Position numbers and translations under genes: made by a program
The notes under the pieces: generated by a model
What the model was told of the DNA's origin: nothing
Database searches by the model: none
The model's input: only the letters and a program-made list of their open reading frames with translations
Shown here: piece after piece, positions 1 through 61,471 of the stretch
How positions within the stretch are numbered: the first letter of the stretch is position 1
Layout of the letters: the number at the start of each line of letters is the position of its first letter
Source of the DNA: Candidatus Berkelbacteria bacterium
GTDB taxonomy: Bacteria > Patescibacteriota > UBA1384 > DTJR01
Reading direction: 5' to 3'
Length of the DNA: 61,471 nt
Assembly (NCBI GenBank): GCA_029865605.1
Contig: JAOUGE010000006.1
Span: 1-61,471, forward strand

Positions 1-627
1 TTGCTGGTTGACCCTGGTGGGGTCTTCATCCTTGGAGACCACCGCCGGACGATTGAGCGGCTGGTGCACCTTGGCGTGCCGCGCGAGCTGGCCGAGGGCT
101 ACTTCAAGCGCCCGGACTACGCGGAGTACGCCCGAGGGCATAGGAGCACGGCCGCCTACTTGGGCGTGCTGCGCGCCGAGTGGGGTGGGTTCTGTCCGGC
201 TGACGAGCAGCTGATCGCGGCCCACGGTGAGCACATGTACGCCGTAGACGTGGAGGTGCTTCGCCTGCTTGGGCGGGTGCGGGTGCCGGTTCTACTGGCA
301 ACGGCTACGAACCCGATCGAGTGGGCGCGGATGGAGTGCTTGCTCGGCCTTGGTTCGGCGTGGCTGACCACCCATCGCGTCTGGCGGTCGGACCATGTCG
401 GGTACCTCAAGGGCGACACGGGTGCCTTCCGCTACACCGTCACTCACTGGCTGCCAGCAGTCGGCTGGACGGTTGAGGCGGAGGGGGTCGCCTTCACGGA
501 TGACGTCCAGCGCAACATCGAGCAAGCTGTCAACGACGGTCTGCGGCCCACGCGCTGCCATCGGTACCAGGCAGGCGAGATCTGGGGCCTTGAGAACTGG
601 CTCCGTAACCTCGACCTAGTCGAGTAG
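1..627 (+). CDS. HAD-superfamily hydrolase-like protein, possibly 5'-truncated by the window edge
   Basis: 208-aa ORF. HAD-like motifs seen by eye: LLATATN (motif II-like), YLKGD (motif III Lys) and FTDDVQRNIEQAVNDGL (motif IV DD). High GC3. Confidence 0.45.
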   Translation: MLVDPGGVFILGDHRRTIERLVHLGVPRELAEGYFKRPDYAEYARGHRSTAAYLGVLRAEWGGFCPADEQLIAAHGEHMYAVDVEVLRLLGRVRVPVLLATATNPIEWARMECLLGLGSAWLTTHRVWRSDHVGYLKGDTGAFRYTVTHWLPAVGWTVEAEGVAFTDDVQRNIEQAVNDGLRPTRCHRYQAGEIWGLENWLRNLDLVE

Positions 628-662
628 ACTGGCCGGGGGCTAACATGAAGGAGGCGATAACG

Positions 663-682
663 GGGCCGGCGAACGCCGGCCC
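663..682 (+). terminator. GC hairpin after the island A gene
   Basis: GGGCCGGCG-AA-CGCCGGCCC, a 9-bp stem, followed by T-rich sequence. Confidence 0.45.
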
Positions 683-707
683 TTCCGTATTTATAATCTT
701 TCTTGGT

Positions 708-742
708 CTTTACCCTTTTCACTTTACCCTTTACCCTTTGCG
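708..742. repeat. Five phased heptads CTTTACC/CTTTTCA/CTTTACC/CTTTACC/CTTTGCG
   Basis: Direct reading. Period is exactly 7 nt. Intergenic, upstream of the sugar operon. Confidence 0.8.
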
Positions 743-776
743 ATATTTCTGCTACTTTATCTCCGAGAGGAGCGCT

Positions 777-2773: not shown

Positions 2774-3724
2774 GTGTTTTATCCTAAAGTCTCCATCGTC
2801 ATTCCTGTTTATAATGGTGCGAACCATCTTCGAGAAGCGATTAATAGTGCCTTGGCCCAGACCTATGAGAATATTGAGGTGCTGGTTATCAATGACGGTT
2901 CAGATGATGATGGGTCCACTGAAGCGATTGCTAAATCTTATGGTGATAAGGTCTGCTATTTTTATAAAAAAAACGGCGGTGTAGCATCGGCATTGAACTT
3001 TGGGATTAAGAAAATGAGCGGCGAATATTTTTCTTGGCTGAGCCATGACGATCTATATAGACCAAACAAAATATTAATCCAGATTAAATATTTACAAGCT
3101 CATTCGGGAGACAGTTCGATAATACTGTTTTCCGATTTTACTTTAATAGACAGGGATAAGAAGATACTATCTAAAGCTAAAATAAAAGGCGTTACCTCAA
3201 AGAATCTTTACTACAGGCTTATTAGCACCAGCCCCATACACGGCTGTAGTTTACTAATTCCCAAGAGATGCTTTCCCTCAAAAAATCCTTTTAATATTAA
3301 GTTACGCGCCACTCAAGACTATGATCTTTGGTTCAGAATGTGCACGAATTACAGATTTATCCATCAACCAAAAGACTTAATTTTTTCTCGGCTTCATAAA
3401 GAGCAGGATACTCTTAAGAAGACAGCTATTGTAAGGTTGGAAAATATAAACCTAAACAATAAGTATCTTGGTCGTTTGAAAAAAGTATATTGCGAAGAGC
3501 CGATTGATAAATTAAGAGAAATTTATTTAGAATGTGCTTTCGGCTTGGTGGAAAAATATTTTTTTCCGTCAGCAAATATAGCATTTAAGTTATATGCTCA
3601 AACCAAACCCAGAATAACTGGGCGAGTTAAAAGTGCTATCCGATTTGATTATGCAAAATTATACCTCCTCGCCAGCGCCAGCATAGGGTACGTCGCACGA
3701 AAAATCCGTAAAACCATCAAGTAA
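2774..3724 (+). CDS. Glycosyltransferase family 2
   Basis: VSIVIPVYNGANHLREAINSALAQTY...VINDGSDD GT-A signature. Confidence 0.8.
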   Translation: MFYPKVSIVIPVYNGANHLREAINSALAQTYENIEVLVINDGSDDDGSTEAIAKSYGDKVCYFYKKNGGVASALNFGIKKMSGEYFSWLSHDDLYRPNKILIQIKYLQAHSGDSSIILFSDFTLIDRDKKILSKAKIKGVTSKNLYYRLISTSPIHGCSLLIPKRCFPSKNPFNIKLRATQDYDLWFRMCTNYRFIHQPKDLIFSRLHKEQDTLKKTAIVRLENINLNNKYLGRLKKVYCEEPIDKLREIYLECAFGLVEKYFFPSANIAFKLYAQTKPRITGRVKSAIRFDYAKLYLLASASIGYVARKIRKTIK

Positions 3725-4735
3725 ATGAAAGCAGTATTCTTCTACAGAAAACCCTACGATGATCATTACAGTATCGAAAATGTTTTTGACACGGTTATTA
3801 GGTCGCTTCCCAAAAATGTTCAGGCCCAAAAAGTAGTCCTGCCATTTATTAGCCGGGGTATTTTCCCCCGACTTTTTAATATTATTTTTGCCGCTTTTAA
3901 GCAAGGTGACATAAACCATATCACTGGCGATGTTCATTACATCGCTTTCTTTATGCGTAAGAAAAAAACTGTCCTTACAATACATGACTGCGGATTTCTT
4001 GTGCAGAACCATTCACCATTAGCAAAATGGATTATTAAATTATTCTGGTTTAGAATGCCTGTCTTGCGGTCTTCAGTTGTTATAGCTGATTCTGAAAAAA
4101 CTAAAAAAGATATCTTGGATATTACTAACTGCAGTCCTTCGAAAATCACCGTTATCCCTGTTCCGGTCGATGAAAGATTTAAGTATATACCTAGGAAATT
4201 TAATAAAAGGTCACCTACATTGCTTCAGATCGGTACCAAACCAAATAAAAACCTACCGCGAGTTATACGTGCGATCAAAAATATCCCCTGTGTTTTACAC
4301 ATTGTTAGTAGTCACAATAAGACATTGGTCACACGGCTTAAAAAATCTAAAATTTGCTACAAGATTTTCAGTAATCTTACGAATGAGGAAATTATTGACA
4401 AGTATGCTAATTGCGATGTTGTTATATTTACATCGCTATCAGAAGGGTTTGGAATGCCAACAATCGAAGCAAACGCCGTTGGCAGACCGGTGGTTACTAG
4501 TAATCTTTCCCCGATGAAAGAAGTGGCTGGATCGGCAGCGTGTCTTGTGGACCCTTACAATATTGATGAGATCAAAAAGGGAATATTAAAGATTATCAAC
4601 AATGCTAATTACCGGAATGAATTGGTTCGCAAGGGGCTTAAAAACGCTAAGCGTTTTGGGCCTAAAAAAATCGCAGGAACTTATTATTTGTTATATAAAA
4701 AAATGGAAAAGGCTAATAACGCTCGTACACAATAA
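3725..4735 (+). CDS. Glycosyltransferase family 4 (GT-B fold)
   Basis: C-terminal EGFGMPTIEANAVGRPVVTSN motif. Start abuts the previous stop. Confidence 0.75.
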   Translation: MKAVFFYRKPYDDHYSIENVFDTVIRSLPKNVQAQKVVLPFISRGIFPRLFNIIFAAFKQGDINHITGDVHYIAFFMRKKKTVLTIHDCGFLVQNHSPLAKWIIKLFWFRMPVLRSSVVIADSEKTKKDILDITNCSPSKITVIPVPVDERFKYIPRKFNKRSPTLLQIGTKPNKNLPRVIRAIKNIPCVLHIVSSHNKTLVTRLKKSKICYKIFSNLTNEEIIDKYANCDVVIFTSLSEGFGMPTIEANAVGRPVVTSNLSPMKEVAGSAACLVDPYNIDEIKKGILKIINNANYRNELVRKGLKNAKRFGPKKIAGTYYLLYKKMEKANNARTQ

Positions 4736-6635
4736 TATTTTCATTTTCCCAATACGGTTTAAAGCTAGAGAAATTTTTGCTTGACACAATCTCGCTCCTT
4801 ACCTTTTCGCGGTAGGTTTTTAGCGCTTCCTGCTTCCGATTAAATTCCTCAAAGTCACGGTCTGAAGCATAAGCCTCTTGAGATAAGACCGGGTCGATTT
4901 TAGGAAGTTTTTTTTCTAAGATAAGAAAGCATTTGCCAGCCGCGCAGCCTTTTTCGAACTTATCTGCGCTGAGGGGCTGAATGACCAAGTCTTCTGAAAG
5001 CAGAGAGAGCCGGTACTCGTCGCTAAAAATATAAATGCTTTGATGCGGGTAGCTTTTAATGATTTTATAAATAATCTCAAACGGCTCAGTATAGTAAGCT
5101 CGGTAGAAAGTGGGCGGAAAGGCAAAACTTGAAGCAACAGTAAGAAGCAGAGAGAGAGGTACTATTTTCAGGCCTATCCACTCTAATTTTCTATTTTGTA
5201 TTACCTCGTCAAAGATAAGGGTTGTTCCTAGCAGTGCCAATAGCATCAAATACCAGCCGCTGCGGCCAAGATAATTAGGCATTTCTAAGATCCCCGTTAT
5301 GGTAACTAATCCAAAGATAACGCTAAAAACAGAGGTAATTAAAAGAACTCTGTTCTTTTTCTTTACGGCAAGATAGCTGACGAATATTGATAAAAGGGTC
5401 CAAAGGTAAGCACCTGCCGATAGAAAATTATTTAAGGGACGGATGCCTTTCATGGTTATTGTCGCTTCGCCAGTTGTGAGCAATGGTGTCAGGTACCTAT
5501 GCAAGAAATCACTTCGCGATTCGTTATAAAAATGGTACTTTCTTAGGAGATTGTCTAGGTGCAGATTCATCTCTCGATACTTTTTGCTTATAATTAGTTC
5601 ATTATTTTCGTCATATGTAATCTCTGTGACTGGGAATCCTTCGCCGTGTTTTGATATTGTTGTTTGTAAATAAATATGGGCGAAAGCAATGAAGAAACCA
5701 AGTATAGCAATAGAGAGAAGCTTAAGTGCGTAAATGCGATAGGGTCTGCCGAATTTCTTTTTGAGAACTAGGGTTAGTAATAAAATGGCTATTAGGGCCG
5801 GTATATATTGCGCAAAAAGATATGGTACCGTCAGACCCAAGGCTACAATCGTAAGTAAATAAAATATTGCCGAGATCTTTCCTGAAAGCTCCTTGGGTTG
5901 TGCCAGAAGGTAAATCAAGAATGGAAGGAAAATAAAAGTCAAGGCCGAGGGGAAAAAGCCGATCGTCTGTAAAGTCAGTTGGTTGAGAATAGGCAAAATA
6001 AGAAGCAATAACAATAAATATTTGGAGATTTTATTATTAAAAATATCCTTGAATAATACGTAAATAGACAAAGTGATTAGAACTCCTAAAGTTGGTCCGG
6101 CAAAGCGATAGATTTCTGAGCCGGGCAAGAATAAAGTCAAAGGATATAGGAAAAGATGGAACCCTGGCGGATAAGGCGCGTAACTTAAACGACCAATGGT
6201 AGCTAGATCATGAAAAAGGTATCGGAAATGGGCATAGGCATCAATTGTTCCCGGGGCGATATTGGTTGCGGAATCGTAAAAACGCGAAAAAATCAGAGCG
6301 GCAGCGAAAGTCAAAAAAACAGCTCCGCCCAGAAAACTTACTCGAGGTAGCCGGGGGCGGAGTATTTTATACCGGTAAAGTTTTATCAGGCTGAAGAGAT
6401 TAATAGCTAAAATCACCGCGCTGTAGATTATGGGGTAGGCCTTGAGAGGACCAAATGAATAAAAAGGATAGGCAAAGATAATCTGGATTGAAATTGAGAG
6501 AGGAATACTATAATGCAGGGCTTTTTTATAATCTCTAAAAAGTGCCGCAAGCGGAAAAAATAAAGCGAAGGCACTGGCGAAAAGCACAGTAAAGATTATC
6601 AGAATCGAGATCAGGTCTGTTGATTCTAAGAGCAT
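4713..6635 (-). CDS. Polytopic membrane protein, GT-C/ArnT/PMT-like putative glycosyltransferase or polymerase
   Basis: 640 aa with more than 10 hydrophobic segments followed by a soluble C-terminal domain. Lies within the glycan locus. Confidence 0.5.
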   Translation of the reverse strand: MLLESTDLISILIIFTVLFASAFALFFPLAALFRDYKKALHYSIPLSISIQIIFAYPFYSFGPLKAYPIIYSAVILAINLFSLIKLYRYKILRPRLPRVSFLGGAVFLTFAAALIFSRFYDSATNIAPGTIDAYAHFRYLFHDLATIGRLSYAPYPPGFHLFLYPLTLFLPGSEIYRFAGPTLGVLITLSIYVLFKDIFNNKISKYLLLLLLILPILNQLTLQTIGFFPSALTFIFLPFLIYLLAQPKELSGKISAIFYLLTIVALGLTVPYLFAQYIPALIAILLLTLVLKKKFGRPYRIYALKLLSIAILGFFIAFAHIYLQTTISKHGEGFPVTEITYDENNELIISKKYREMNLHLDNLLRKYHFYNESRSDFLHRYLTPLLTTGEATITMKGIRPLNNFLSAGAYLWTLLSIFVSYLAVKKKNRVLLITSVFSVIFGLVTITGILEMPNYLGRSGWYLMLLALLGTTLIFDEVIQNRKLEWIGLKIVPLSLLLTVASSFAFPPTFYRAYYTEPFEIIYKIIKSYPHQSIYIFSDEYRLSLLSEDLVIQPLSADKFEKGCAAGKCFLILEKKLPKIDPVLSQEAYASDRDFEEFNRKQEALKTYREKVRSEIVSSKNFSSFKPYWENENIIVYERY

Positions 6636-7807
6636 GTTTTTTGGGTTAGTTTAAAATAGATTGCAGAAATTTTTGCGACTGTTTTTTTTAAGCTAAACTC
6701 AGCAATTGCTTTCTGACAATTTTTCTTTAAACTGCTTCTGTTTTTATAGGCCAGTTCTAGCTGTAGAGCGCTTCGTTTTTTATTCGAAGTATTTTTTATA
6801 ATCTGCGCACAGCCATATTTTTCTAGTACTTCAGCTATACCCACTTCTTTTGAAAGGCAAACTGGCAAACCATGGCTTATAGCTTCAAGGGTTGCCAGAG
6901 AAAAAGATTCGTAATGGGAAAAAAGGACGAAAATATCACTAATCCCAAAAAGCTCTTCCTTATTTTTCCCCTCGACAAGGCCGGTGAAGATTACTTTGTT
7001 GCCGACTCCGAGTGAGCCAATCTGCCGTTCGAGCTTTTTAAGTTGCCCGCTCTCGTCGGGACCGGCAATGATTAGCTTATAGTGCGGATCTTTTTTTGCA
7101 AGTTTGGCAAAAGCGGCAATTAAATGTTCTAAGCCCTTGATAAAACTAAGCCGCCCGAGAAATAAAAATACTTTGTCTGACTGGTTGAGGCCATACTCTC
7201 GCCGTTTTGGCTTTATGGGTTTACGCTTTGGTGGTTCGATTGGATTCAGGGCGACTTCGATTTTGTCTTGAAGGGATGGTATAAAACCAGCTAACCTGTC
7301 TCTTTCAAGAGGTGAGACGACGAGGATTTTTGCCGCGTTTTTCAGAAGTTTCTTGCCATAGAGCAAATTAAAAACCCTCTTGATAAGGCTTTTTTTAAAA
7401 AGCGGGATCGGCATAGGCATTTCGTGAAGATGAATAATATAAGGAATCTTGTATTTACGGCAGTATTTAGCGCAGATGATATTTTGGTAGGTAAAGAAGG
7501 AGTGCAGGTGGACAAGATCGAATTTTTTGAGGTTGTTCCGGATGTATTGTTTAAAACCGCGGGGGAGATATAGATTAAAATCTTTGGCCAGCCAAGGGCT
7601 CAAATTCCTAAATCTGACGACCTTTACTCCCTTGATGGTTTCGGCGTTTTTTGCAACTCTTGAGTGGCGATCGTATGCATCAGTGGTGGCTACGCTAACC
7701 TGGAAACCTCTTTTAACAAGAAGCTCGGAAATATCGGAGCAGACTTTGACCGGACCGCCAAACCCGAATGCGGGCTTGTAAAAGGGAATAACCTGAAGTA
7801 TTTTCAT
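6626..7807 (-). CDS. Glycosyltransferase family 4
   Basis: Start reset to MKILQVIPFYKPAFGFGGP. The 57-aa extension in the ORF track crosses the divergent promoter region. GT-B motifs present. Confidence 0.75.
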   Translation of the reverse strand: MKILQVIPFYKPAFGFGGPVKVCSDISELLVKRGFQVSVATTDAYDRHSRVAKNAETIKGVKVVRFRNLSPWLAKDFNLYLPRGFKQYIRNNLKKFDLVHLHSFFTYQNIICAKYCRKYKIPYIIHLHEMPMPIPLFKKSLIKRVFNLLYGKKLLKNAAKILVVSPLERDRLAGFIPSLQDKIEVALNPIEPPKRKPIKPKRREYGLNQSDKVFLFLGRLSFIKGLEHLIAAFAKLAKKDPHYKLIIAGPDESGQLKKLERQIGSLGVGNKVIFTGLVEGKNKEELFGISDIFVLFSHYESFSLATLEAISHGLPVCLSKEVGIAEVLEKYGCAQIIKNTSNKKRSALQLELAYKNRSSLKKNCQKAIAEFSLKKTVAKISAIYFKLTQKTCS

Positions 7808-7823
7808 AGGTGTTATATTACAG

Positions 7824-7851
7824 GGTAAAGGGGAAAGGGTAAAGAGGAAAG
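7824..7851. repeat. Four phased heptads GGTAAAG/GGGAAAG/GGTAAAG/AGGAAAG
   Basis: Direct reading. Lies between divergent GT4 genes, ending 3 nt before the ATG at 7855. Confidence 0.8.
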
Positions 7852-7854
7852 AAA

Positions 7855-9057
7855 ATGAACATCCTCGTTGTTCATGAAACCGAATATTTAGCAAAGGATA
7901 AAATGGTTTTTGAGTACCAAATAATTCCGGAGATCTGGGCAAACAAAGGCCATCAGGTTTTCGTTCTCGATTATCCAACGCACTGGAGAAAAAAGCATTT
8001 TTTTGATTTTGGCTATGCGAGGTCGCAAATAATCAGAAATATTAGAAGATCAAGCCAGAAAAAGGGCATAACCTTAATCCGGCCGGCAATCGTTAAGGTT
8101 CCCGGCCTCGCCCGGATCGTTGCGGTCGTTTCTTATTTTTTTCTTATTCCTAAGATAATCAGAAAGTACAAAATCGAACGGATATTTCTTTATTCGGTGC
8201 CGACCAATGGTCTGCAAACCATTTTTTGGGCAAGAAGATTCAAGGTCCCTGTGCATTTTCGGCTTTTGGATGTTTTGCATCGGCTTGTCCCAAACAAGTT
8301 TTTATCATCGCCGACCTATCTTCTAGAAAAAATCGTTTATCCTCGGGTAAGCGAGCTGACGGCGATTACTCCGCGATTAACCAAGTACGCGATCTCAATG
8401 GGAGCCAACAAAAGAACGGCTTCTTATTTGCCTTCGGCCTCGGACAGCGAGCTTTTCTATCCCCAGAGAAAGGACCCTAAACTTTTACGGAAGTTCTTAA
8501 TAAAAAGGGGCGAGCTCACCCTTCTTTTCGCCGGTACGCTCTATGGTTTTTCCGGTCTGGATAGGATAATTGAGTTTTGGGGCAAGCACAAAGATGAGTT
8601 TTTAAATCTTAAACTTATCGTCTGTGGCGACGGTAGCCAGAAGAAACTGCTCGAAAAGCTAATCGAGAAGTATGCCCTCGGCGATCAGATTTTTCTAACC
8701 GGTTTTATAAACTACCTCAAGTTGCCTAAATATATAAATCTCGCCGATATCTGCATCAACCCTTTTGAGATAAATGAAATTACCAAGATTATTTTCCCGG
8801 GTAAGATTTATCAATATATGGCTTGCGGCAAGCCGACTATTGCCACCCGCCTCAAAGGAGTGCTTGATATTTTCCCTGATCTGGGCGGCAAAAACGGCAT
8901 CTATTATTTTAGTCTTAGCAGACCAAGAGAGTTTTTTGAGCTAGCCCACAAAATCGGCAGACGTGAGATCAAAGATCCCAACCCTCAGCTTAACGAGATT
9001 GCAGGAATAATTGAGAAGAGACTATTACAGTTAAAAGTGAAAAGTGAAAAGTGGTAG
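7855..9057 (+). CDS. Glycosyltransferase family 4
   Basis: 400 aa with GT-B C-terminal domain features (GFINYL...CINPFE...MACGKPTIATR). The C-terminal codons themselves form an AGTGAAA heptad tract. Confidence 0.7.
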   Translation: MNILVVHETEYLAKDKMVFEYQIIPEIWANKGHQVFVLDYPTHWRKKHFFDFGYARSQIIRNIRRSSQKKGITLIRPAIVKVPGLARIVAVVSYFFLIPKIIRKYKIERIFLYSVPTNGLQTIFWARRFKVPVHFRLLDVLHRLVPNKFLSSPTYLLEKIVYPRVSELTAITPRLTKYAISMGANKRTASYLPSASDSELFYPQRKDPKLLRKFLIKRGELTLLFAGTLYGFSGLDRIIEFWGKHKDEFLNLKLIVCGDGSQKKLLEKLIEKYALGDQIFLTGFINYLKLPKYINLADICINPFEINEITKIIFPGKIYQYMACGKPTIATRLKGVLDIFPDLGGKNGIYYFSLSRPREFFELAHKIGRREIKDPNPQLNEIAGIIEKRLLQLKVKSEKW

Positions 9058-9058
9058 G

Positions 9059-9071
9059 CCAGCGAAGCTGG
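9059..9071. terminator. CCAGC-GAA-GCTGG mini-hairpin between convergent genes
   Basis: 5-bp stem with a GAA triloop, embedded in a short GC-rich patch. Confidence 0.35.
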
Positions 9072-9109
9072 GGGTGGCGGGGCCAAAGTTTATAAATACT
9101 TTTTGGAGA

Positions 9110-9475
9110 TTATTTCTTTACCCCTTTAACTTTACCCTTTACTCCAGCGAGATCTTTAAGGGCAATTTCCCTTGATAGCTGTTCAAGCGCTTTTTCAACC
9201 CTGTGGGCTTTGGCATAAATTCGATAGTTGATGAAAAGAAGAAAGGCTAAAGCCATCCCGAAGACTGTCCCGAGTCCGGTCCGCTGTCCGCCAAGGAGGG
9301 AAATTAGCTTGTCAATTAGGCTGGGAAAGTAGGCAACTATTAAGATAGCTATCCAAATACCGACCCAGAAAACCGTCATAGTTAAGCCCTCTCTTTTTGC
9401 TTTTAAGTCCAAGTAGAGTCGCGAAGCGACCAGGACCGCTAGAATGGTGGCGAAGGTTTTAGCGATTATTTGCAT
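9110..9475 (-). CDS. DUF2304-like small membrane protein
   Basis: 121 aa with 4 TM segments, directly downstream of a GtrB-like GT2 (a commonly seen pairing). The C-terminal GVKGKVKGVKK is encoded by a heptad tract at 9116-9143. Confidence 0.6.
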   Translation of the reverse strand: MQIIAKTFATILAVLVASRLYLDLKAKREGLTMTVFWVGIWIAILIVAYFPSLIDKLISLLGGQRTGLGTVFGMALAFLLFINYRIYAKAHRVEKALEQLSREIALKDLAGVKGKVKGVKK

Positions 9476-10159: not shown

Positions 10160-10166
10160 GATATTA

Positions 10167-11129: not shown

Positions 11130-11195
11130 AATACCCTCGCTCTTATTTTGCATTCTTATTTAACCACCGAGAAGCTATTAGGTAAAGACCATTCC

Positions 11196-49500: not shown

Positions 49501-52500
49501 GAAATATGAACCGCCGTCATGTCTGCCAATTTGCGCAGTAGTTGATGTATAAAGTGAACTATCTACATCTGAACTAGCAGTTATATCCTCACCGTTGAGA
49601 TAGAGCTTGCCGCCGACGCCAGAGGTATAGGTCAAGCTAACTCTAGACCATGAATTAACCGAGATAGGCTTAGAGCCATTCCCGAAAATATTTTTCCAAG
49701 TTCCTGAACCATTTCTGTATTGGGAGTATAATCTGTTTGTAGTAGCTTCTTTTCGAAAATAAATACTGTATGGCGAAGTCCCAAAAATTACTTCTCCGTT
49801 CGTCGTACTAGGATTTATCCAAGCACTTATTGTTATCGGGGGTTGAAAGTTACCAAATGATGCAAAATTTACATACCCACTTCCACTTGCGGCCAACGAC
49901 ATGGCGCTGTTTACTTTTCCGGTCTGACCGAATGAAACAGTCCCGCTGGTTGCTCCATCATTATTATTAGAGGTAGCATCATAAACAGTTCCGCTCGCCT
50001 CATTAAGGTGCCATACTCCTTTATAGTTTGCTTCCCAAACGTTGGCTTGATCCTGCTGGCTAGCCACCCCCGCGTTGCCGTAATACATATACAAAACCGT
50101 GTCGGTAGAGGTTGATAGGTTGGTTTTAACCCAAGCGTCGAGTTCTCGGGTGCCAGAGGAAGTAGTGAACTTTTCTATCTCGTGAGATAATTTGGTCGTC
50201 CCGTTAGATGTTGTGAATAGAATATCATCTGCGTCACTCTGGGCGTTGTCAAAAACCGCGTTTGCTCCGTCGGTGATTTTAACCAGCATCGGGAAGTCGG
50301 TTAGATCAGATGCGACTTTGGTGTGATCAACGGTTATCTTCTGGCGATAGCTCCATGTTCCGCCCGCTCCCGCATACCAAGCCCCATCCGCCGTGATCGG
50401 ATAATTCTTTCCCTCGGCGGCGCCAATGTAGTTAAACGTATCCGTCTGATTCTTATACTCCGCCGCAATCCAAGGAGCGGAGCGGGCATTTGATGAAATT
50501 TTGAATTCATCGAGCTTGCCGTCGAAAGCTTCACTTGACCGGCCGATGGTTGCAGGATAACCAGCTAGATTTGGGGTTGTGGTAGGGATTGTCCCACTAT
50601 ATGATAGAGCGATTGCTGAGCCGTTTACATAAACCTTAAGTCGTGTAGCGTTATCAACTTGGGTACCGTCATATACCATACTAATGTGGAACCAACTACC
50701 AGCACTTATAGTCGTTGAGTAATCCCAATAGCCAAAAGCAGACGAACCGTTATAAATAAAAAATCCAAAACTTCCCGTTGCCCTTGGAGAAATCTGAATT
50801 AAATTACTTCCGTCAAGCTGTTTTAGAAGGATATTGTCATTTTGATCCAATACATCCTGATTCATCCAGAAAGATGTAGTAAAAGCCGAGGCGGAATTGA
50901 GCTGTGTCACATCACCAATATTTGCATTTGAATCTGTGCCGTTAAACTCTATTGCGTTTCCGATTTTACCCGTAGCCGAATAAGTGAGATTTGTCTCTGC
51001 AGTTGAGTTGTAGCTTCCCTTGGAGTCCGAAAGGTGGCCCGAAGGCTGATTCATATGGTAATTAGCGACAGTATTTGAGTCCCAGACACCTCTCTGATGC
51101 GAATAATCAGACGTTGTGCCATTACCATAATACATATATATATAGTCCGCAGAGGAAGAAAGATTGATTTGGGGAACTTTGACCCAAGCGATGGAATCAC
51201 CAGCCGGGGCTTTGGTTTCCCATTCAAACGATAATGGGGTGGTGTCGTCGGCGTCAACAAAAATGACGTCATCCATATCGGCTTGGATAAGTGTTGACCA
51301 AGCCAAAGATGAGTTGTTGGCTTTAACGACAACGGGGAAATTGACCAGATTTTCCGCTTGGTCTGCATTATTAAAAGTAATCTTGCGGCGGTACGAATAA
51401 TTATCTGAATTTTGCGGAGCACCAAAGGTGGTGAATTGGTCTGATTCAGAAAGATAACTTGCTTTGATCCAATCAGCACTGCGGGGACTTGAGGATAATT
51501 GCACTTCGTCTATTTTTCCATCAAAAGGGTTAGTTCCTCCACCAATAAATGCATCAAATGTCGCTAAATTTGGTCCAATTGCAGGTATTGTGCCGACATA
51601 TGACATTGTCTGGTTATCACCATTAATATATAATTTTAATCTCCCAGGATTGTCAGCTTGGGAGCCATCATAAACCACTGTTACGCGAGCCCAGGTTCCG
51701 GCTGTATAAACAGTTGAATAATCAAATTCGCCTCTAGACGCCGCACCGGCGGTTACAACTGGCGTTAAATTCCCAGTGCTTGTTGTCCATAGACGAAGAA
51801 TTGCACTGGTACCATTATATTTCTGAAAAATGTTATCACTTACATCTATGACATCCTGATTCATCCAACAGCTGAAAGTGAAGGCACTTGCCGAATTAAG
51901 CTCTATAATATCTGAAAGATTGGCAACTGAATCAGTACCATTTAACTCTATGGCATTGCCTATTTCACCGGTAACGGAATAAGTTAAATTTGTCTCTGCA
52001 GTTGAAGTATAATTTGTTGTCGAATCAGTCAGATGTCCGCTTGCATCCGCTAAAGAATATCTTGAAATATAATCATTTGACCAAACGCCAGCTGGATTTG
52101 TCTGATCAGCTGCGGTGGCAGAACCATAATACATATAAACATAATCAGATGAAGATGAAGCATCTATTTGGGGCACCTGCACAAAAGAAATAGACTCACC
52201 TGAAGAATCTTTTTCTTCCCATTCAAAATCAAGAAGTGTTGAATTGTCTGAATCAACAAAAATAACATCATCAAGATCAGCTTGAACCAGAGATGCCCAG
52301 TTGAGCTCATCATTGGTCGCCTTGACCATCACTGGGAAATTAGTCAGGTTTTCCGCTTGGGCCGAGTTGTCAAAAGTAATCGTTCTTCTGTATGTAAATC
52401 CGTCTAATGTTCCTTCGTCCCCGACCGAGGTGAAATTATTATCGCCTTGATTTTTATATTCAGCGGCGATCCAAGGGGCAGAACGGATGACATTGGAAAT

Positions 52501-53754
52501 GCGAATTTCGTCAAGCTGACCCTGGTAAAAATAATTTGTATGGCTCCAGTTGCTACCAATAAGTGCATTAAAAGCCGCGTTGCTAGTTTTGGGTGCGACA
52601 GGGGCGGTGATTTCTGTTGTTGAGATTAATGAACCATCTTTGTAAAAAATCGGGTCATCATCAACCGTGGAATAGACATAAGTGGTTGTTAAAAAGCTCC
52701 ACTGGTTCTGAGTAATGGTACCGCTTGGAGAATAATAATAGGCGCCGCTTGTCCAGCCAGTATAATAGCGGAGTTGCGAACTGTAGGTAGAAAAGTCTAT
52801 ACCCCCCTTATTAATTATGCCTCGCCAATCACTTCCTACGGGATTATTTGTCGGTCTTGCCCAGGCCTGATAAGTCATTGGAGTCACATTATCAATTGAG
52901 TCATGGCTTCCAGCATCAAAATAGGCAGATGAGCCGTCAAAGCCAATTGCCCCGCCAATTTTACTAGTGTCGTTATAAGTGAGAGTTCCATTTGCAACTC
53001 CAGTATTATTGCCCGTTGAATCAGTTATATTCCCACTGGCTTGATTCATATGCCAAACAGCGGCATATCCATTTGTCCACACATTCACCGCGTCAGATTG
53101 GTCAGTGGCAGAGGGGTTGCCGTAATCAATATAGATATAGTCAGTGTTGGAGGAGGCGTCTATTTGAGGGATTTTGACCCAGGCGATGGACTCACCAGTG
53201 GGGTCTTTTTTCTCCCACTCCCATTTGAGAGCTGTTCCGTCAGCTTCTTTAAAGATAACGTCATCCATATCCGCCTGGATTTTGCCAGACCAGGAGAGAG
53301 AGGCATTATCAAGTTTGAGCATGACTGGGAAATCAGTCAGGTTTTCCGCTTGGGCTGAATTGTCAAAACTAATCTTGCGACGATAAGAATAGGCGCTATC
53401 ATAGAAAGTCGGAGCGGAGGAGTTATACCAGCTCCCGCTCCTTCCGGTCAATTTGATCTCATCAGAGGTCGTGGTAACACCTGTATTTGTCCCCAGATCC
53501 CAGTCCGCGGAGGATGATTTAGCAATGCTGGTCTGGCTTGAAGCCAGAAGGGAAGTCATAAAATAGGAAATCAGAACAAGAAAGACCAATGAAATGTAAA
53601 AAGCAAAAGAGAACCGCCGCTTTTCTTTGTCAATTCCAAGGGCAACTACTGCCGCTAACAGGTTTGTTGCTCCTGATTTTAGACCACTAGAAACCCTTCG
53701 GAGTACTCTTAGACCACCACCCAAAAACGCTTTGGGCAAATCCCTCCTATTCAT
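46516..53754 (-). CDS. Giant surface protein (2412 aa) with four DUF2341-plus-LamG-like modules and an FN3-like stalk
   Basis: Has an N-terminal TM anchor and a C-terminal hydrophobic tail. The motif Y(S/T)YRRKITFDNSAQAENLT.FPV occurs four times, at about aa 121, 453, 786 and 1135. The stalk is paralogous to that of the neighbouring giant gene. Confidence 0.8.
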   Translation of the reverse strand: MNRRDLPKAFLGGGLRVLRRVSSGLKSGATNLLAAVVALGIDKEKRRFSFAFYISLVFLVLISYFMTSLLASSQTSIAKSSSADWDLGTNTGVTTTSDEIKLTGRSGSWYNSSAPTFYDSAYSYRRKISFDNSAQAENLTDFPVMLKLDNASLSWSGKIQADMDDVIFKEADGTALKWEWEKKDPTGESIAWVKIPQIDASSNTDYIYIDYGNPSATDQSDAVNVWTNGYAAVWHMNQASGNITDSTGNNTGVANGTLTYNDTSKIGGAIGFDGSSAYFDAGSHDSIDNVTPMTYQAWARPTNNPVGSDWRGIINKGGIDFSTYSSQLRYYTGWTSGAYYYSPSGTITQNQWSFLTTTYVYSTVDDDPIFYKDGSLISTTEITAPVAPKTSNAAFNALIGSNWSHTNYFYQGQLDEIRISNVIRSAPWIAAEYKNQGDNNFTSVGDEGTLDGFTYRRTITFDNSAQAENLTNFPVMVKATNDELNWASLVQADLDDVIFVDSDNSTLLDFEWEEKDSSGESISFVQVPQIDASSSSDYVYMYYGSATAADQTNPAGVWSNDYISRYSLADASGHLTDSTTNYTSTAETNLTYSVTGEIGNAIELNGTDSVANLSDIIELNSASAFTFSCWMNQDVIDVSDNIFQKYNGTSAILRLWTTSTGNLTPVVTAGAASRGEFDYSTVYTAGTWARVTVVYDGSQADNPGRLKLYINGDNQTMSYVGTIPAIGPNLATFDAFIGGGTNPFDGKIDEVQLSSSPRSADWIKASYLSESDQFTTFGAPQNSDNYSYRRKITFNNADQAENLVNFPVVVKANNSSLAWSTLIQADMDDVIFVDADDTTPLSFEWETKAPAGDSIAWVKVPQINLSSSADYIYMYYGNGTTSDYSHQRGVWDSNTVANYHMNQPSGHLSDSKGSYNSTAETNLTYSATGKIGNAIEFNGTDSNANIGDVTQLNSASAFTTSFWMNQDVLDQNDNILLKQLDGSNLIQISPRATGSFGFFIYNGSSAFGYWDYSTTISAGSWFHISMVYDGTQVDNATRLKVYVNGSAIALSYSGTIPTTTPNLAGYPATIGRSSEAFDGKLDEFKISSNARSAPWIAAEYKNQTDTFNYIGAAEGKNYPITADGAWYAGAGGTWSYRQKITVDHTKVASDLTDFPMLVKITDGANAVFDNAQSDADDILFTTSNGTTKLSHEIEKFTTSSGTRELDAWVKTNLSTSTDTVLYMYYGNAGVASQQDQANVWEANYKGVWHLNEASGTVYDATSNNNDGATSGTVSFGQTGKVNSAMSLAASGSGYVNFASFGNFQPPITISAWINPSTTNGEVIFGTSPYSIYFRKEATTNRLYSQYRNGSGTWKNIFGNGSKPISVNSWSRVSLTYTSGVGGKLYLNGEDITASSDVDSSLYTSTTAQIGRHDGGSYFTGLVDEVTSATTVRTPEWIATEYANQNSPSTFFSLASEAKTASYASPTGTGGGSGIINTLWNGGWGSPNGFSSNVTIPANTSISYQIRSSAVGGPNDGDWTAWGSLGTAIATGTYNVPNGSMPAITLGANKYLQVRSFLTTTDGQSTPVLADYTIYYLEDVDPPTNPTTTGLTIGGVAQTTGTWTNDIGAVSTSFSGATDTESGVAGYYLYLGTDSGADPSTYQAHVGAGGDTQTWATGTTLSSADDGKTYYLRAKTKDNSNNTPAAATLFTFSLDTTPPTRPDYITANPAGYTTTNSFDFTWPAGTDPVGGGGGASGIAYYQYKRSTDGSWTDTAGPDDRAANDITAYQEGANTFYVRTVDTADNISTTYTQVTYYWSGEAPPKPVNLDVAPLSSDTNSFTISWDKPSQDPGESPIIGYYFSFNEPPTALNTTYIASTDAHVSIGPDSYATQQGENTVYVTSRNEAGIGSFLPEYYASDTFTCNTAAPPIPTSVSIYDSSDKVLQRFSISLNWLAGVGQDPSSFDHYLIERSTNGTDYSTLATTANASFINTDLSDAITYYYRVKAVDNAGSTSAASTIVSLKPSGKYTSPPPLLTAPTVITRPHEAEISWLTERTSTSFIRYSTDENDLSELKGQEEWVISHKVTLTGLKANAKYYYKTQSFDLYRDYALESAYSTTHTFITPDAPSISKVEVANITLTSADIKWETTTIATSTLHYGKTSSYGKDIEDISGISSTQHSTKLSALEHSTNYHFEITATDIDGNELSSDDYSFETLPIPKIISFKLTRLEDRATQSAKVTFETNVETSTVVKYQAAGAVEQEIVKSKLEKTHDVEIADLLDNAKYTIYAQGKDQFGNVATSDKLNYETPFDTRPPKVEKIEYEVSTVGLLSGKAQIIVSFTTDEPAQAYVEYGEGLGGGYTRQTSKEDILKTSHVKIISELDPMQTYHFRVNALDKSGNTSTSSEYVFATGQATESILNIILRALRSVFGWMM
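49344..53400 (-). repeat. Four tandem intragenic modules of about 1 kb
   Basis: Recurrent nucleotide blocks such as GGTTTTCCGCTTGGGC near 53340, 52340 and 51350. Confidence 0.7.
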
Positions 53755-56363: not shown

Positions 56364-56374
56364 TTTGGATGAGG

Positions 56375-56402
56375 GGGGTGCGGCGATACACCGCCGCACC
56401 CC
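56375..56402 (-). terminator. 11-bp GC hairpin GGGGTGCGGCG-N6-CGCCGCACCCC
   Basis: Direct reading. No U-run. Ends 12 nt upstream of the ogt ATG. Confidence 0.4.
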
Positions 56403-56406
56403 GGAA

Positions 56407-56742
56407 TCACTGGCCGATCTGGCCGAGGATAGCTTCGATTGTCTCTCCGCAGGCGTGGGTGGCCCCGTTAAGGCGAACGAAGCCGCGGTCGGCCCGTTCG
56501 GCAATGACCAGGCAGTCGGGGAGTTGCCTCGCGCACTCTGCTGCAAGTTGCTCGGCCTCCTCTGGGGGGAAACCGATCAGCACCAGCAGGGAACACCCCT
56601 CTTTACGCGCACGGTTTACACGCTCGTCTGGGGCTAGCCAGCGGGCATCGTGTCCCCTATCTTGGAGCGTCTGGACTATCCTAGACGCTCGCTCAAATCG
56701 GCCGTCTTTGATGTCTGGGATGAGAACGAGCGCCTTTGGCAT
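56407..56742 (-). CDS. Hypothetical protein (111 aa)
   Basis: GGAGAAGGAGGTGAG SD. Alternating beta-alpha pattern (KALVLIPD..., LLVLIGFP...) suggests a flavodoxin/receiver-like fold. That fold call is speculative. Confidence 0.5.
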   Translation of the reverse strand: MPKALVLIPDIKDGRFERASRIVQTLQDRGHDARWLAPDERVNRARKEGCSLLVLIGFPPEEAEQLAAECARQLPDCLVIAERADRGFVRLNGATHACGETIEAILGQIGQ

Positions 56743-56787
56743 GCTCTCACCTCCTTCTCCCAGACGCAGTGGTTTACTGACGGTTAA

Positions 56788-56816
56788 AATGTAAACCTAA
56801 ATAGCTCTTTCGTCAA
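56788..56816 (-). promoter_or_regulatory. Promoter TTGACG-17-TACATT
   Basis: Read on the minus strand in the AT-rich flank of island H. Same -10 as the groES promoter. Confidence 0.5.
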
Positions 56817-59179: not shown

Positions 59180-60606
59180 AGAGCTTTTTTTATTCGGTTG
59201 ATTGACTCTTCTTTTTTGAGAGTAACGAGCAACTCAACTGGGGAGGGGGATTTTTCAGCACCGGACAGAGCGACTCTGACCGGCCAGAAAACGTCACCAT
59301 TTGAGAGATTTTGTTCTTTGACTGTTTCTTCGAGCGCCTTTTGCAGGTTGTCCTGCTTCCAGCTGGGATCGCTGATTTTTTCAAGTTTTTCAGCTGCTGC
59401 TTTCAGTCCCTTTTGGGTTGCTTCGGGTGTTGATTTTTTGAAAACCAGCAATTCTTTGGGGTATTTGGGTGTCTGGCGGAGTGCTTTAATATATTCGGCC
59501 ATTTCTTTTAGCGTTTTGAAACCACCCCTTTCTAATAACTTGCCTTCAGGGATTGATAAATCTGGGATATCAAAGTCTTTTATAAGCTCTTGTAGTTGTT
59601 TAGGAGTTTTGCACTTGAGATAAAACTCATTAAAGTGGTTAAGCTTCCCTATATCAAAAACCGCTGGGGATTTATTAACGTACTCAATCTTAAATAGTTT
59701 CTCGAGCATCATGAGACTTGTTCCGCCTATCGCAATTTGCGATGGTGAAACAAATAACTCCTTATCATCTTTTGGGTTCCACCCGAGAAGGATCATAAAA
59801 TTAATTAGCGCGTCTGGCAGGTAACCCATCTTCTTGTATTCTAAAATTCCCGTCGCGCCGTCGCGTTTTGAAAGCTTGCCTTTGTTGGGCCCTAAAATCA
59901 CCGGCAAGTGGGCAAATTCTGGCGGTTCCCAGCCAAAAGCGCGGTGCAAGAAAACATGCTTGGGGGTCGAGGGTAGCCACTCTTCGGCGCGGATAACATG
60001 GCTAATTTTCATTTCATGATCGTCCACTACAGCAGCCAAATGATAGGTTGGGAAGCCGTCTGACTTGAGAATGACCGAATCATCGAGGGTCGATGTGTTG
60101 ACCGAAATCTTCCCCCGAACGAGGTCATTAAATTCGATCGTTTTGTTCTCCGGCAGCTTCATTCGAATTACCGTGCCCTCTGGCAATTCGTCGAGGCGGG
60201 TTGCAGCCAATGTGAAGGTTTTTTTGCGGCAATGGCTGTCATATCCAGGCGGTTTTCCGAGCGCTTTTTGGCACGCTCTTACTTCTTTCAGTCTTTCTTC
60301 GGAGCAAGTGCAGATATAAGCCATATCCTTTTCAACAAGTTCGAAAGCGGCTTTATGATAAATTTCAAGCCTTTGGGATTGGATCATCGGCTTATTGATG
60401 TTTTCGGGTATGATTTCGAGCCAGCGCAAGGCCTCTTTGACAATGTTGATCGAGGCTTGATTGAGGCGTTTTTGGTCGGTGTCTTCGATTCGAAGTAAAA
60501 ACCTGCCCTTATTTTTTTTGGCAAAAAGGTAGCCAAAAAGGGCGGTCCTGATATTTCCAATATGGGGATCGCCGGTGGGAGAGGGAGCAAAACGGGTTAT
60601 TACCAT
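59176..60606 (-). CDS. gltX: Glutamate--tRNA ligase
   Basis: RFAPSPTGDPHIGNIRTAL (HIGH) and KLSKRDG (KMSKS). Confidence 0.9.
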   Translation of the reverse strand: MVITRFAPSPTGDPHIGNIRTALFGYLFAKKNKGRFLLRIEDTDQKRLNQASINIVKEALRWLEIIPENINKPMIQSQRLEIYHKAAFELVEKDMAYICTCSEERLKEVRACQKALGKPPGYDSHCRKKTFTLAATRLDELPEGTVIRMKLPENKTIEFNDLVRGKISVNTSTLDDSVILKSDGFPTYHLAAVVDDHEMKISHVIRAEEWLPSTPKHVFLHRAFGWEPPEFAHLPVILGPNKGKLSKRDGATGILEYKKMGYLPDALINFMILLGWNPKDDKELFVSPSQIAIGGTSLMMLEKLFKIEYVNKSPAVFDIGKLNHFNEFYLKCKTPKQLQELIKDFDIPDLSIPEGKLLERGGFKTLKEMAEYIKALRQTPKYPKELLVFKKSTPEATQKGLKAAAEKLEKISDPSWKQDNLQKALEETVKEQNLSNGDVFWPVRVALSGAEKSPSPVELLVTLKKEESINRIKKAL

Positions 60607-60609
60607 ATT

Positions 60610-60966
60610 TTATTCTTCTACTGCACTCTCAAAGTGTCGAATTGCGGGTGGCTCTTTTGAGGTATCAACAGAGATGATGTCAATTCTAATCACGCTTTTA
60701 GGATATTCTATCTGGAGTAGCTTTGCAAGCTGGAGAAGTTTTCGGCGCTTGAAATAATTAACCATTTCATATCCCTCACCAAGTTCCCGGCCGGATTTTG
60801 TTTTGACTTCAACGATAATAATGTCTTTCTTTTGCCGAGCCAAGATATCTATTTCGCCAATTTTGGTTTTGAAATTACGAGCGATAATCTTGTAGCCGTT
60901 TTTCTTAAAGTGCTTGGCGGCCAGCTCCTCGCCGTAACTGCCGGTTGATTTTCGTTCAAATGTCAT
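60610..60966 (-). CDS. yraN: YraN-family (UPF0102) endonuclease-like protein
   Basis: GEIDILARQKKDIIIVEVKT motif. 118 aa. Confidence 0.8.
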   Translation of the reverse strand: MTFERKSTGSYGEELAAKHFKKNGYKIIARNFKTKIGEIDILARQKKDIIIVEVKTKSGRELGEGYEMVNYFKRRKLLQLAKLLQIEYPKSVIRIDIISVDTSKEPPAIRHFESAVEE

Positions 60967-61039
60967 TTTGCCTCATTTCCATTGATTATTATACTGATAG
61001 TGCTAACATTTTGCTTAATCCTGCCTCGAGGCAAAGGAA

Positions 61040-61471
61040 AAGTTTCGCGGTGGGTGATCTTTGACGTATCCTAAGGGAGGGACAGCCGTGTCCGATGGAG
61101 CAGTGCTTGCCGCCGCCTACATCGTAGCAGGGTCTGTAGCTGGGTTTATGTGGCATTTGCTTGCCACAGATAACCCCAATCTTCCCCCTGAGTTCAGTTT
61201 CCGTCTCTGGTTCCCGAGGCCGGCGATCCCGTTCTTTGTTCTGATCGGGGTCGTTTGGCCGTTGAGCTTCTCTATCATGTTTGTCTGGTGTGTCGGGTGG
61301 TTCTTGGTTGTGGGGACAGTCGTTGCCGTACGGGAGGGTCTGTCTGCACCGTCGTGCGAGACTGACTATAGGAGGCCAGCGGCGTGGCCGTTTGGTCTCT
61401 GAAAGGAGCTGTTGCTACTATCCGCTGCAACTCTCCTCTCTTCTAGAGGAGGCTCCGAAAGGGGGAAGAAC
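61040..61471. other. GC-rich island I (runs off the window end)
   Basis: Composition shift near 61040. Confidence 0.65.
61088..61402 (+). CDS. Hypothetical membrane protein (about 104 aa, 3 TM)
   Basis: GTG start 6 nt after a GGGAGGG SD. Hydrophobic segments present. Confidence 0.4.
   Translation: MSDGAVLAAAYIVAGSVAGFMWHLLATDNPNLPPEFSFRLWFPRPAIPFFVLIGVVWPLSFSIMFVWCVGWFLVVGTVVAVREGLSAPSCETDYRRPAAWPFGL

Follow-up and report, generated by a model that had tools for sequence, protein, structure and literature searches.

Phage morons are said to be single genes or short gene sets that carry a promoter and a terminator, deviate in composition from their surroundings and sit inserted in a conserved gene order, with products that are often small, membrane-associated or functionally uncharacterised. 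Nine G+C-rich blocks of this general design occur in a 61,471-nt contig of Candidatus Berkelbacteria bacterium (JAOUGE010000006.1; hereafter the window, meaning that whole stretch), a member of the Patescibacteria or candidate phyla radiation (CPR), and are the subject of this study. As a first-pass annotation of the window had proposed, the blocks are moron-like in being discrete units of deviant composition, each with Shine-Dalgarno (SD) sites, one or more open reading frames (ORFs), a terminator and often a promoter. Unlike morons, however, these units are set among the housekeeping operons of a cellular chromosome, away from any phage genes and without matches to PHROGs or phages, and they are G+C-richer than their host. 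Morons are sporadic, whereas the window units recur at the same site in every relative seen: for seven blocks, the contigs of relatives that reach the same neighbours carry the block.

Other described systems offer similarly partial likenesses. Genomic islands and horizontal gene transfer (HGT) have been reported in Patescibacteria (PMC12455944). The window blocks resemble HGT islands undergoing Lawrence-Ochman amelioration in their deviant G+C content, codon usage and dinucleotide signature, their sharp borders and their enrichment in ORFans, but they come with no integrase beyond a Xer-type recombinase and no att repeats (block 3 only searched), and they show neither a sporadic distribution nor donor homologues. 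They are also G+C-richer, whereas acquired DNA is usually AT-richer, and they have not converged on the composition of the host despite saturated flanks. Integron cassettes and clusters of attC sites lacking an integrase (CALINs) are likewise short ORFan units ending in an imperfect inverted repeat, but the hairpins of the window are terminators of drifting sequence, with T-tracts in relatives; the units are scattered rather than arrayed, at least four have a predicted promoter of their own, and there is no IntI. The hypervariable regions of SAR11 and the islands of Prochlorococcus are flexible islands in streamlined bacteria which, like the window units, keep a fixed place between core genes, diverge strongly or differ in content from one relative to the next, and likely function in the envelope or in interactions. 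Those islands, however, measure tens of kb and are similar to the genome or AT-richer in composition, whereas the window units measure 0.4–1.6 kb, are G+C-rich and mostly retain their gene families rather than swapping them. Mouse Fxy at the pseudoautosomal boundary, a G+C-rich, fast-evolving locus driven by GC-biased gene conversion (gBGC), shares the sharp local rise in G+C at all codon positions and the faster protein evolution, but its mechanism is eukaryotic and meiotic, while the borders in the window follow transcription units and no AT-to-GC bias was detected. A literature search gave no description of small, persistently G+C-rich, syntenic cassettes, and the first-pass annotation likewise knew of none.

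Here we describe the nine blocks, their counterparts in related genomes and the persistence of their composition. We consider it fairly probable that they are real, old, syntenic and clade-restricted cassettes, neither recent imports nor artefacts.

Composition and Architecture of the Blocks

Segmentation of the window with a two-state hidden Markov model (HMM) on G+C content returned high-G+C segments at 1–687, 11314–12660, 14933–16501, 23839–24653, 28978–30144, 30943–31361, 33600–34252, 56373–56772 and 61075–61471. Together they sum to 7,454 nt, or 12% of the window, at 62.5% G+C, in a window of 47.1% G+C overall. The nine blocks named in the first-pass annotation are thus real, with borders within 30 nt of those of the model except on the left of blocks 2 (54 nt) and 9 (35 nt), and its hand counts (37/60 at 15001–15060, 24/60 at 3001–3060) are exact. 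Pooling gives a G+C of 0.625 for the islands, compared with 0.450 for the backbone. Stretches of 200 nt have a mean G+C of 0.625 inside islands (standard deviation 0.031, n = 30) and 0.451 outside (0.058, n = 261), where 0.58 is reached by 1.1%. The mean profile of 16 junctions is step-like, dropping from a G+C of 0.66 to 0.38 in 50 nt and flat beyond. The shift affects all codon positions: G+C at first, second and third positions (GC1, GC2, GC3) is 0.52–0.72, 0.43–0.54 and 0.63–0.82 in island ORFs, and 0.40–0.62, 0.29–0.40 and 0.35–0.55 in backbone genes, two giant genes with high GC2 being excluded. Similarly, the G+C-normalised dinucleotide distance (delta*) between islands and backbone is 0.19, while chunks of the backbone differ from one another by 0.04; all but one of the nine islands lie nearer to the other islands than to the backbone. 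In G+C and GC3, two of the profiles that the first-pass annotation had called for, and in dinucleotide signature, the islands stand apart. Weaker high-G+C patches were also returned within groEL and both giant genes; those in the giant genes were rejected as islands, being driven by GC2 and not island-like.

Read from its sequence, each block is an autonomous unit with SD sites, one to four ORFs, a G+C-rich terminator hairpin and often its own promoter. The units, with lengths in amino acids (aa) and putative transmembrane (TM) segments, are:

1–687, plus strand: island 1, G+C 0.667; b1 ORF at 1–627 (208 aa), HAD/YihX-like hydrolase; hairpin at 661–681.
11196–12704, plus strand: island 2 unit; promoter-like site at 11196–11224; SD GGGAGGG; b2 ORF at 11302–12615 (437 aa); nested hairpin at 12619–12660 and second, T-tract terminator at 12679–12704; G+C-rich segment 11314–12660.
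14883–16501, plus strand: island 3 unit; relaxed promoter at about 14883–14911; leader at 14932–14988; SD GAGGTGAT; b3 ORF at 15015–16424 (469 aa; the NCBI call is 435 aa from 15117); hairpins at 16441–16457 and 16459–16498; G+C-rich segment 14933–16501.
23839–24653, plus strand: island 4; strict promoter at 23641–23669; b4 ORF at 23854–24117 (87 aa, two TM); downstream, three further short ORF-phase segments (public gene calls of 59, 55 and 42 aa); hairpin at 24578–24622.
28978–30144, minus strand: island 5; b5b at 29689–30075 (128 aa, about four TM); b5a at 29278–29673 (131 aa, about four TM); terminator hairpin at 29206–29240; non-coding G+C-rich hairpins in 28978–29205.
30943–31378, plus strand: island 6; b6 ORF at 30955–31326 (123 aa); terminator hairpin at 31350–31378.
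33600–34339, minus strand: island 7; promoter at 34310–34339; SD ACGGAGG; b7 ORF at 33937–34239 (100 aa, Cys-rich, zinc-ribbon-like); G+C-rich, multi-hairpin non-coding part at 33600–33936 (about 340 nt, flat frame plot), with the terminator at 33600–33635.
56373–56816, minus strand: island 8; promoter at 56788–56816; SD AAGGAGGTGA; b8 ORF at 56407–56742 (111 aa); terminator hairpin at 56375–56402, abutting the ogt start.
61075–61471, plus strand: island 9, truncated by the window end; SD GGGAGGG and GTG at 61088; mechanical ORF at 61061–61402 (113 aa, about three TM).

A GGAGG-type SD site lies upstream of every island ORF, and strong G+C-rich hairpins follow the stop codons in eight of the nine blocks, block 9 being cut off; on both counts the first-pass annotation was right. 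Its estimate of promoters at six or more blocks holds for relaxed patterns only, sites of this kind being predicted before further blocks, while a strict TTGACN-16..18-TAnnnT site is predicted upstream of four of the eight testable blocks (b2, b4, b7 and b8). The strict pattern has ten matches in the window, the others including sites upstream of groES and of the giant-gene operon. Island 6 lies directly upstream of the groES promoter (31400–31428).

Conservation at the Same Loci in Related Genomes

Relatives of the blocks were recovered by exact-protein look-ups, exhaustive HMMER searches of 5.8 billion proteins and one scan of metagenome contigs. Counterparts were found for eight blocks, all but block 4, on contigs of related Patescibacteria. 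Their G+C is still about 60–65% throughout, and seven have the same core genes on their flanks. The first-pass annotation had listed repeated capture from a G+C-rich partner as a possible source, and recent capture of this kind is contradicted by the recurrence of the same G+C-rich ORFs at conserved positions, with best matches in relatives and not in foreign taxa, an outcome that the annotation itself had named as grounds for rejection.

The counterparts span a wide range of divergence. Block 1 recurs in L091, a section of a 185-kb contig, where a b1 homologue 38–41% identical lies in a comparable cluster for polysaccharide synthesis; the island there measures 1.65 kb, has a G+C of 0.60 on a 0.40 backbone and holds the HAD-like gene and a 312-aa partner. 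Positional orthologues of b2 stand between the same epimerase gene and 184-aa gene in L088 (71% aa identity), L089 (30–33%) and L095 (28%), in blocks of 0.58–0.61 G+C with flanks of about 0.3–0.5; two more b2 relatives, L090 and L096, are on contigs too short for their flanks to be read. The b3 orthologues of L082 and L086 are 72–73% identical, with G+C of 0.61–0.70 and flanks of about 0.35–0.5; they are the only b3 homologues among the 5.8 billion proteins, and the left flank of block 3 in L082 aligns to the window at 85% over 55 nt. Block 5 lies beside the same NTP-transferase gene in L093, where it has four G+C-rich ORFs (131, 61, 151 and 127 aa) as opposed to two in the window. Blocks 6 and 7 are carried on either side of groES-groEL by L085, where b6 is 91% and b7 64% identical in aa sequence. 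Block 8 occurs at the same locus in L087 (96%) and L092 (61%, G+C 0.63), and L092 also has a b9 orthologue (60%) beside UPF0102/gluRS, within a segment of 0.63 G+C (4160–5096); in both contigs the region of blocks 8 and 9 is syntenic with tRNA-Gln, gluRS and UPF0102 of the window.

Homologues appear confined to this clade. In the exhaustive HMMER search they were found solely in islands of this kind, with the exception of the broad HAD family, whose closest member to b1 is also a positional counterpart, and 80 GroEL neighbourhoods of other genomes held no match to the island proteins. Searched singly, the island proteins of the window gave no match in Pfam, NCBIfam, PHROGs or PADLOC (the HAD family was seen by its family profile); tblastn found none in 50,697 GenBank phage records and none in PLSDB plasmids, and an alignment scan of viral contigs (IMG/VR) also gave no match. 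Decayed integrative elements, another source suggested in the first-pass annotation, find little footing here. No mobile-element genes were found in the window apart from its sole recombinase, a Xer-type protein (34701–35723) scoring 248 bits on XerC/XerD models and 131 on an integron-integrase model with a cut-off of 265, and a search for att-like direct repeats, confined to block 3 and its tRNA-Ser, was negative. A regular-expression scan for the attC consensus RYYYAAC...GTTRRRY gave nine matches in the window, with a pair at one island only (33619–33671).

An assembly artefact had also been raised, in which reads of a G+C-rich organism would have been joined to a CPR backbone by chimeric assembly or binning. 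What speaks for it is that contig ends fall within islands: both ends of the window lie inside islands, the first coinciding with the b1 start codon, and a contig from the European Nucleotide Archive (ENA) starts 8 nt before window position 1, which suggests that assemblies break there through coverage bias or strain variation. That ENA MEGAHIT contig (ERZ27296335, 55,448 nt) is nevertheless 100% identical to the window at 1302–22615 and 21848–43491, covering blocks 2–7, and a Logan contig (L084) from another run, SRR7132115, is 100% identical over 7644–14606 and spans both block-2 junctions. Moreover, the AT/GC/AT structure recurs at the same loci in ten contigs from diverged relatives, which come from other samples, ten or more in number, and were built with other assemblers. 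We regard the chance of a chimeric origin as negligible.

Divergence and Persistence of High G+C

Ratios of non-synonymous to synonymous divergence (dN/dS) are 0.12–0.52 for all eight island genes with orthologues. For b3, differences at the three codon positions are 18/15/42% and dN/dS is 0.21–0.24; for b6, comparison of L085 with the window gives a dN/dS of 0.15 at a dS of 0.34 (groES dS 0.08). By this substitution pattern, the island ORFs are real genes under purifying selection. Island proteins are usually less conserved than flanking proteins, and the comparisons by relative (protein identity, dS) are:

L089: b2 identity 0.30, flanks 0.64–0.70.
L085: b7 identity 0.64 and b6 0.91, flanks 0.95–0.98; dS of islands 0.34–0.84, flanks 0.08–0.47.
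L093: b5a identity 0.36, flank 0.60.
L092: b8 and b9 identity about 0.60, flanks 0.68–0.77, with one flank, a DUF7544 gene, at just 0.39; dS of islands 1.05–1.19, flanks 1.5 to saturated.
L091: b1 identity 0.41, flanks 0.46–0.62.
L087: dS of island 0.13, flank 0.10.
L088: dS of island 1.44, flanks 1.8 to saturated.

Island dS climbs with flank divergence and is higher still in the deepest pairs, where flanks are saturated. The relatives rank alike by island and by flank divergence, which points to co-divergence, that is, vertical inheritance.

Island composition has persisted through this divergence. In the deeper pairs the proportion of synonymous differences (pS) in flanks is 0.68–0.93, which is saturated, yet island GC3 is 0.62–0.85 in every lineage, compared with 0.35–0.55 in the backbone, which is a poor fit to simple amelioration after a single ancient transfer. 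We set a limit on amelioration by a back-of-envelope two-state decay of third positions towards a backbone value of about 0.48: a GC3 of about 0.72, starting from about 0.93, permits each lineage no more than about 0.4 substitutions per synonymous site, or about 0.8 in pairwise dS. This limit is reached by the shallowest informative pair (dS 0.80–0.88) and exceeded by five deeper pairs, at 1.05–2.9, values that are conservative under biased composition. Additionally, island GC1 and GC3 both fit a Muto-Osawa genome of about 60–62% G+C, so that there is no third-position lag; the regressions used are reportedly those of the Lawrence-Ochman work. Where non-coding parts of islands have ceased to align between relatives, their G+C is still 0.63–0.68 and they are equally hairpin-rich.

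Recombination has also touched the region. Compared with L085 (1009–2652), groEL (31848–33491) is a mosaic in which codons 121–360 are almost identical, while codons 361–540 hold 83 synonymous and 29 non-synonymous differences, in a tract that continues into island 7 and within which groEL GC3 is raised (0.62). The first 60 groEL codons form a further divergent patch. Island 6 is more diverged than its own flanks, and other recombination tracts occur away from islands.

Hairpins, Structure and Gene Products

Terminator hairpins occupy the same places in relatives, with drifted stem sequences and compensatory changes, and clean T-tracts after the hairpins in L089 and L095 indicate that they are intrinsic terminators. 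An inner stem-loop, TCCGC-N4-5-GCGGA, has five matches in the window against 0.46 expected, four of them at island ends; copies at 12633–12646, 14949–14962, 16471–16485 and 24594–24608 are nested in differing outer stems. The motif was considered as a mobile-element or uptake signal and dropped, as it is not conserved in relatives, and since its stems drift there we treat it as a similarity of terminator modules only.

Island segments fold better than their dinucleotide shuffles (mean z −1.9, compared with −0.1 for the backbone; p = 0.007). In frame plots, islands 5 and 7 include G+C-rich DNA without codon periodicity, and island 4 runs through four successive coding phases. For the hairpin array of island 7 (33590–33945), folding z is −8.3 in sense and −5.7 in antisense orientation; its counterpart in the near-identical strain L085 (2835–3225) is unalignable and equally structured (z −6.1). 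The array may represent a structured RNA or a series of palindromes. A 172-aa gene call in the L085 counterpart (2841–3359) is probably spurious, being rich in Arg, Pro and Ser and out of frame in G+C-rich DNA. Several long antisense or out-of-frame ORFs are also present within the window islands, for example at 14955–15941 on the minus strand. The 5' leader of b3 (14932–14988) is structured, with pairing kept by compensatory changes in two relatives, and may be a cis-regulatory RNA; its inner stem CTCCGC/GCGGAG becomes CTCTGC/GCAGAG in L082, and L086 has another paired sequence. Rfam, searched at permissive thresholds with the non-coding island parts and the b3 leader, gave no match.

The products are mainly ORFans and small membrane proteins, as had been anticipated. 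The b1 ORF (GC1, GC2 and GC3 of 0.72, 0.45 and 0.82) has homologues of about 200 aa; PF00702 matches seven of the nine family members, and the family profile matches PDB entry 4dcc (7e-19) and YihX (3e-15), while the window protein by itself scores below the Pfam threshold. The motif IV Asp pair (D167, D168) is invariant in the alignment, and the Asp at position 4 aligns with the motif I Asp of the homologues. By profile and motif, then, the b1 protein belongs to the HAD/YihX-like family, in agreement with the HAD-like product of the first-pass annotation. For b2, an AlphaFold2 (AF2) model built from eight sequences (pLDDT 85, pTM 0.79) shows an alpha-solenoid at the N-terminus and an alpha/beta domain at the C-terminus, and a fold search in the PDB returned no significant match; as modelled, b2 is a confident novel fold. 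The FGGY-like assignment previously given to the block 3 product did not stand: b3 has no Pfam or NCBIfam match, a PDB profile search gave matches at chance level only, and its AF2 model (pLDDT 37) is unusable. Inspection of the sequences marks b4, b5a, b5b and b9 as small membrane proteins with several passes, and b7 as a Cys-rich protein resembling a zinc ribbon.

Genomic Context

The backbone is that of a bacterial chromosome, with a polysaccharide/glycosyltransferase cluster, trpS, valS, groES-groEL, the Xer recombinase, ABC transporters, two giant genes for probable surface proteins, a radical-SAM/pcm/ogt operon, gluRS and five tRNAs, and the housekeeping neighbours named in the first-pass annotation (trpS, valS, groES/EL, ogt, pcm, tRNAs) are among them. 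Among representative genomes of the Genome Taxonomy Database (GTDB), GroEL has best identities of 66–68%; many of the best matches, the top-ranked included, are Patescibacteria metagenome-assembled genomes (MAGs), among them Komeilibacteria, Falkowbacteria, Buchananbacteria and Kerfeldbacteria.

Most of 35 control GroEL neighbourhoods lack comparable islets, and a few have one to three weaker segments of raised G+C. The clearest case is Falkowbacteria contig L010 (JACRNW010000001), with three islets of 0.64–0.66 G+C on a 0.43 backbone near groEL, which indicates that the pattern may extend within ABY1-like Patescibacteria. These islets lie at 15270–15606, 18904–20136 and 20326–20978, and one codes for a 374-aa protein with collagen-like GPQ repeats; their gene families differ from those of the window islands, and the phenomenon may be the same.

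Two tRNA-Ser genes on the minus strand (14579–14666 and 21696–21783), the first of them near island 3, are each preceded by a degenerate tandem copy of themselves (14694–14814 and 21863–21897), with G+C-rich hairpins following each copy. Identity in the first copy, which is conserved in L082, is 83% over the 5' half and 76% over the T-arm; the second copy comprises 35 nt at 97%. Neither copy is recognised by ARAGORN or at Rfam gathering thresholds, and the first has no tRNA match at E ≤ 1. There is no matching repeat on the far side of island 3, so the tandem copy is not an att scar of that island. An AT-rich 385-aa gene (16533–17690) adjoins island 3 and weakly matches the LA_3751/LA_3752 family of putative glycosyltransferases; it is missing in L082 and L086, whose sequence passes from the island end to window position 17789.

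The giant genes stand in tandem at 37791–46505 (2,904 aa) and 46516–53754 (2,412 aa) and probably encode surface proteins. Both have fn3 and Pur_ac_phosph_N domains, and the second also has Laminin_G_3 and DUF2341. Their second-position G+C is unusually high (0.48–0.55) and their GC3 is patchy (0.23–0.70).

Possible Origin and Maintenance of the Cassettes

In our favoured reading the cassettes are old, their presence at these loci going back to the common ancestor of a clade of roughly genus to family rank, a depth estimated from the 60–77% identity of flanking proteins. They have been inherited vertically in these positions, co-diverging with their flanks and evolving faster than neighbouring core genes. 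An account that would accommodate these observations is that they entered once, as foreign, moron-like units from a source of about 60% G+C. Their G+C would have been held at about 0.60–0.65 by a constraint on the whole cassette, non-coding parts included, bounded by the ends of the transcript. The most plausible constraint would be selection for G+C-rich, hairpin-rich, stable transcripts or DNA, as opposed to leftover donor composition; we rank such selection first among mechanisms because gene conversion, codon or protein selection and a reservoir of cassettes fit worse. Selection at the codon or protein level was rejected as the driver, as it does not explain the G+C-rich non-coding parts. 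The ancient foreign origin of the cassettes is plausible, and the specific mechanism of maintenance is put forward as a tentative proposal, held with less than even confidence.

Several observations weigh against this account. No counterpart of block 4 was recovered in any relative, the relatives are known from short contigs only, with one or two loci each, and the deep "orthologues" at 28–41% identity may be related cassettes that took the place of the originals, as opposed to products of strict vertical descent. The excess folding is nearly equal on the antisense strand (mean z −1.2), and may reflect a DNA-level property or simply what is typical of G+C-rich coding DNA. Values of dS near saturation are imprecise, such that slow amelioration from a very G+C-rich donor is only disfavoured. 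Furthermore, polarised recent changes in b3 and b8 comprise 16 AT-to-GC and 32 GC-to-AT, which implies a current equilibrium of about 0.47 and looks like ongoing decay; these counts are small, and parsimony with a distant outgroup is biased in the GC-to-AT direction. Recent changes are reportedly AT-biased even in stably G+C-rich bacteria, and a separate report is said to have found the same where bacterial genomes stay G+C-rich.

The polarised changes are among the evidence that favours plain amelioration, in which one or a few ancient transfers from a donor of about 70% G+C would be decaying neutrally towards the backbone. Amelioration would also account for the alien composition and dinucleotide signature common to most islands and for step-like borders such as insertions would give. 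It is difficult to reconcile with island dS that reaches and exceeds the limit of the decay model while flanks are saturated in the deeper pairs, with the fit of both GC1 and GC3 to one genomic G+C, and with non-coding island DNA that has lost all alignable similarity and kept its composition, and we judge it unlikely. A continuing re-seeding of hotspot loci, with cassettes repeatedly replaced from a G+C-rich reservoir such as an unseen plasmid or phage, a host or G+C-richer relatives, would suit a composition that looks "fresh". It would also suit the variable content of block 5, the divergent recombination tract formed by island 7 and the 3' end of groEL between near-identical strains, and the window ends and one ENA contig end that fall in islands, as expected of population-variable DNA. 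Such a reservoir was not found among viral contigs, phages or plasmids, however, and the b2 relatives with readable flanks (L088, L089 and L095) all lie in the same CPR context, while b3 has no relatives beyond its two orthologues among the 5.8 billion proteins searched. Independent captures would not give an island dS that tracks flank divergence in the same rank order, and on balance re-seeding seems somewhat less likely again than amelioration.

Recombination hotspots with gBGC, which would fix AT-to-GC changes at all codon positions and speed protein evolution, would explain the faster evolution of islands relative to their flanks and a G+C that is high throughout, at each codon position and outside coding sequence alike; the tract over groEL codons 361–540 and island 7, with its elevated groEL GC3, also speaks for them. 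Against this, the steps in composition coincide with the SD site or leader and with the terminator, without decay into flanking genes, and the recent substitutions, few as they are, hold no AT-to-GC excess. The GC3 shift of 0.25–0.35 is also far above the bacterial gBGC shifts that have reportedly been described. We consider gBGC improbable, ranking just below re-seeding. The reading of the blocks as old, vertically inherited cassettes thus remains the one we favour.

A broader proposition, which we regard as speculative and rather doubtful, is that one small genome has two stable G+C set-points, with most genes at about 44% and a dozen or so transcript-sized cassettes at about 62% beyond synonymous saturation, and that the force responsible would follow the cassette borders and cover the non-coding hairpin arrays. 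In a wilder variant, the cassettes may be tuned for expression or survival outside the CPR cytoplasm, for example in a G+C-rich host.

Implications

DNA of deviant composition is usually read as the product of recent horizontal transfer and is expected to fade, whereas the blocks described here are old yet unfaded. If the contrast is actively maintained, they would provide a tractable system for studying what keeps bacterial DNA G+C-rich. If two set-points exist, the genome would be a within-cell natural experiment on selection, biased conversion and mutation in which a single machinery replicates and repairs both classes of DNA, and metagenomic population data from the same samples could give substitution spectra for the two compartments. 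In practice, composition-based island finders and tools for MAG decontamination may mislabel or trim genuine CPR genes. The products, including a HAD-type phosphatase, the novel-fold b2, the zinc-ribbon b7 and the membrane proteins, probably serve clade-specific roles in the envelope or in host interaction. Taken together, this set of fast-evolving proteins, mostly membrane proteins or proteins of unknown fold, may mediate the symbiotic lifestyle of the clade.

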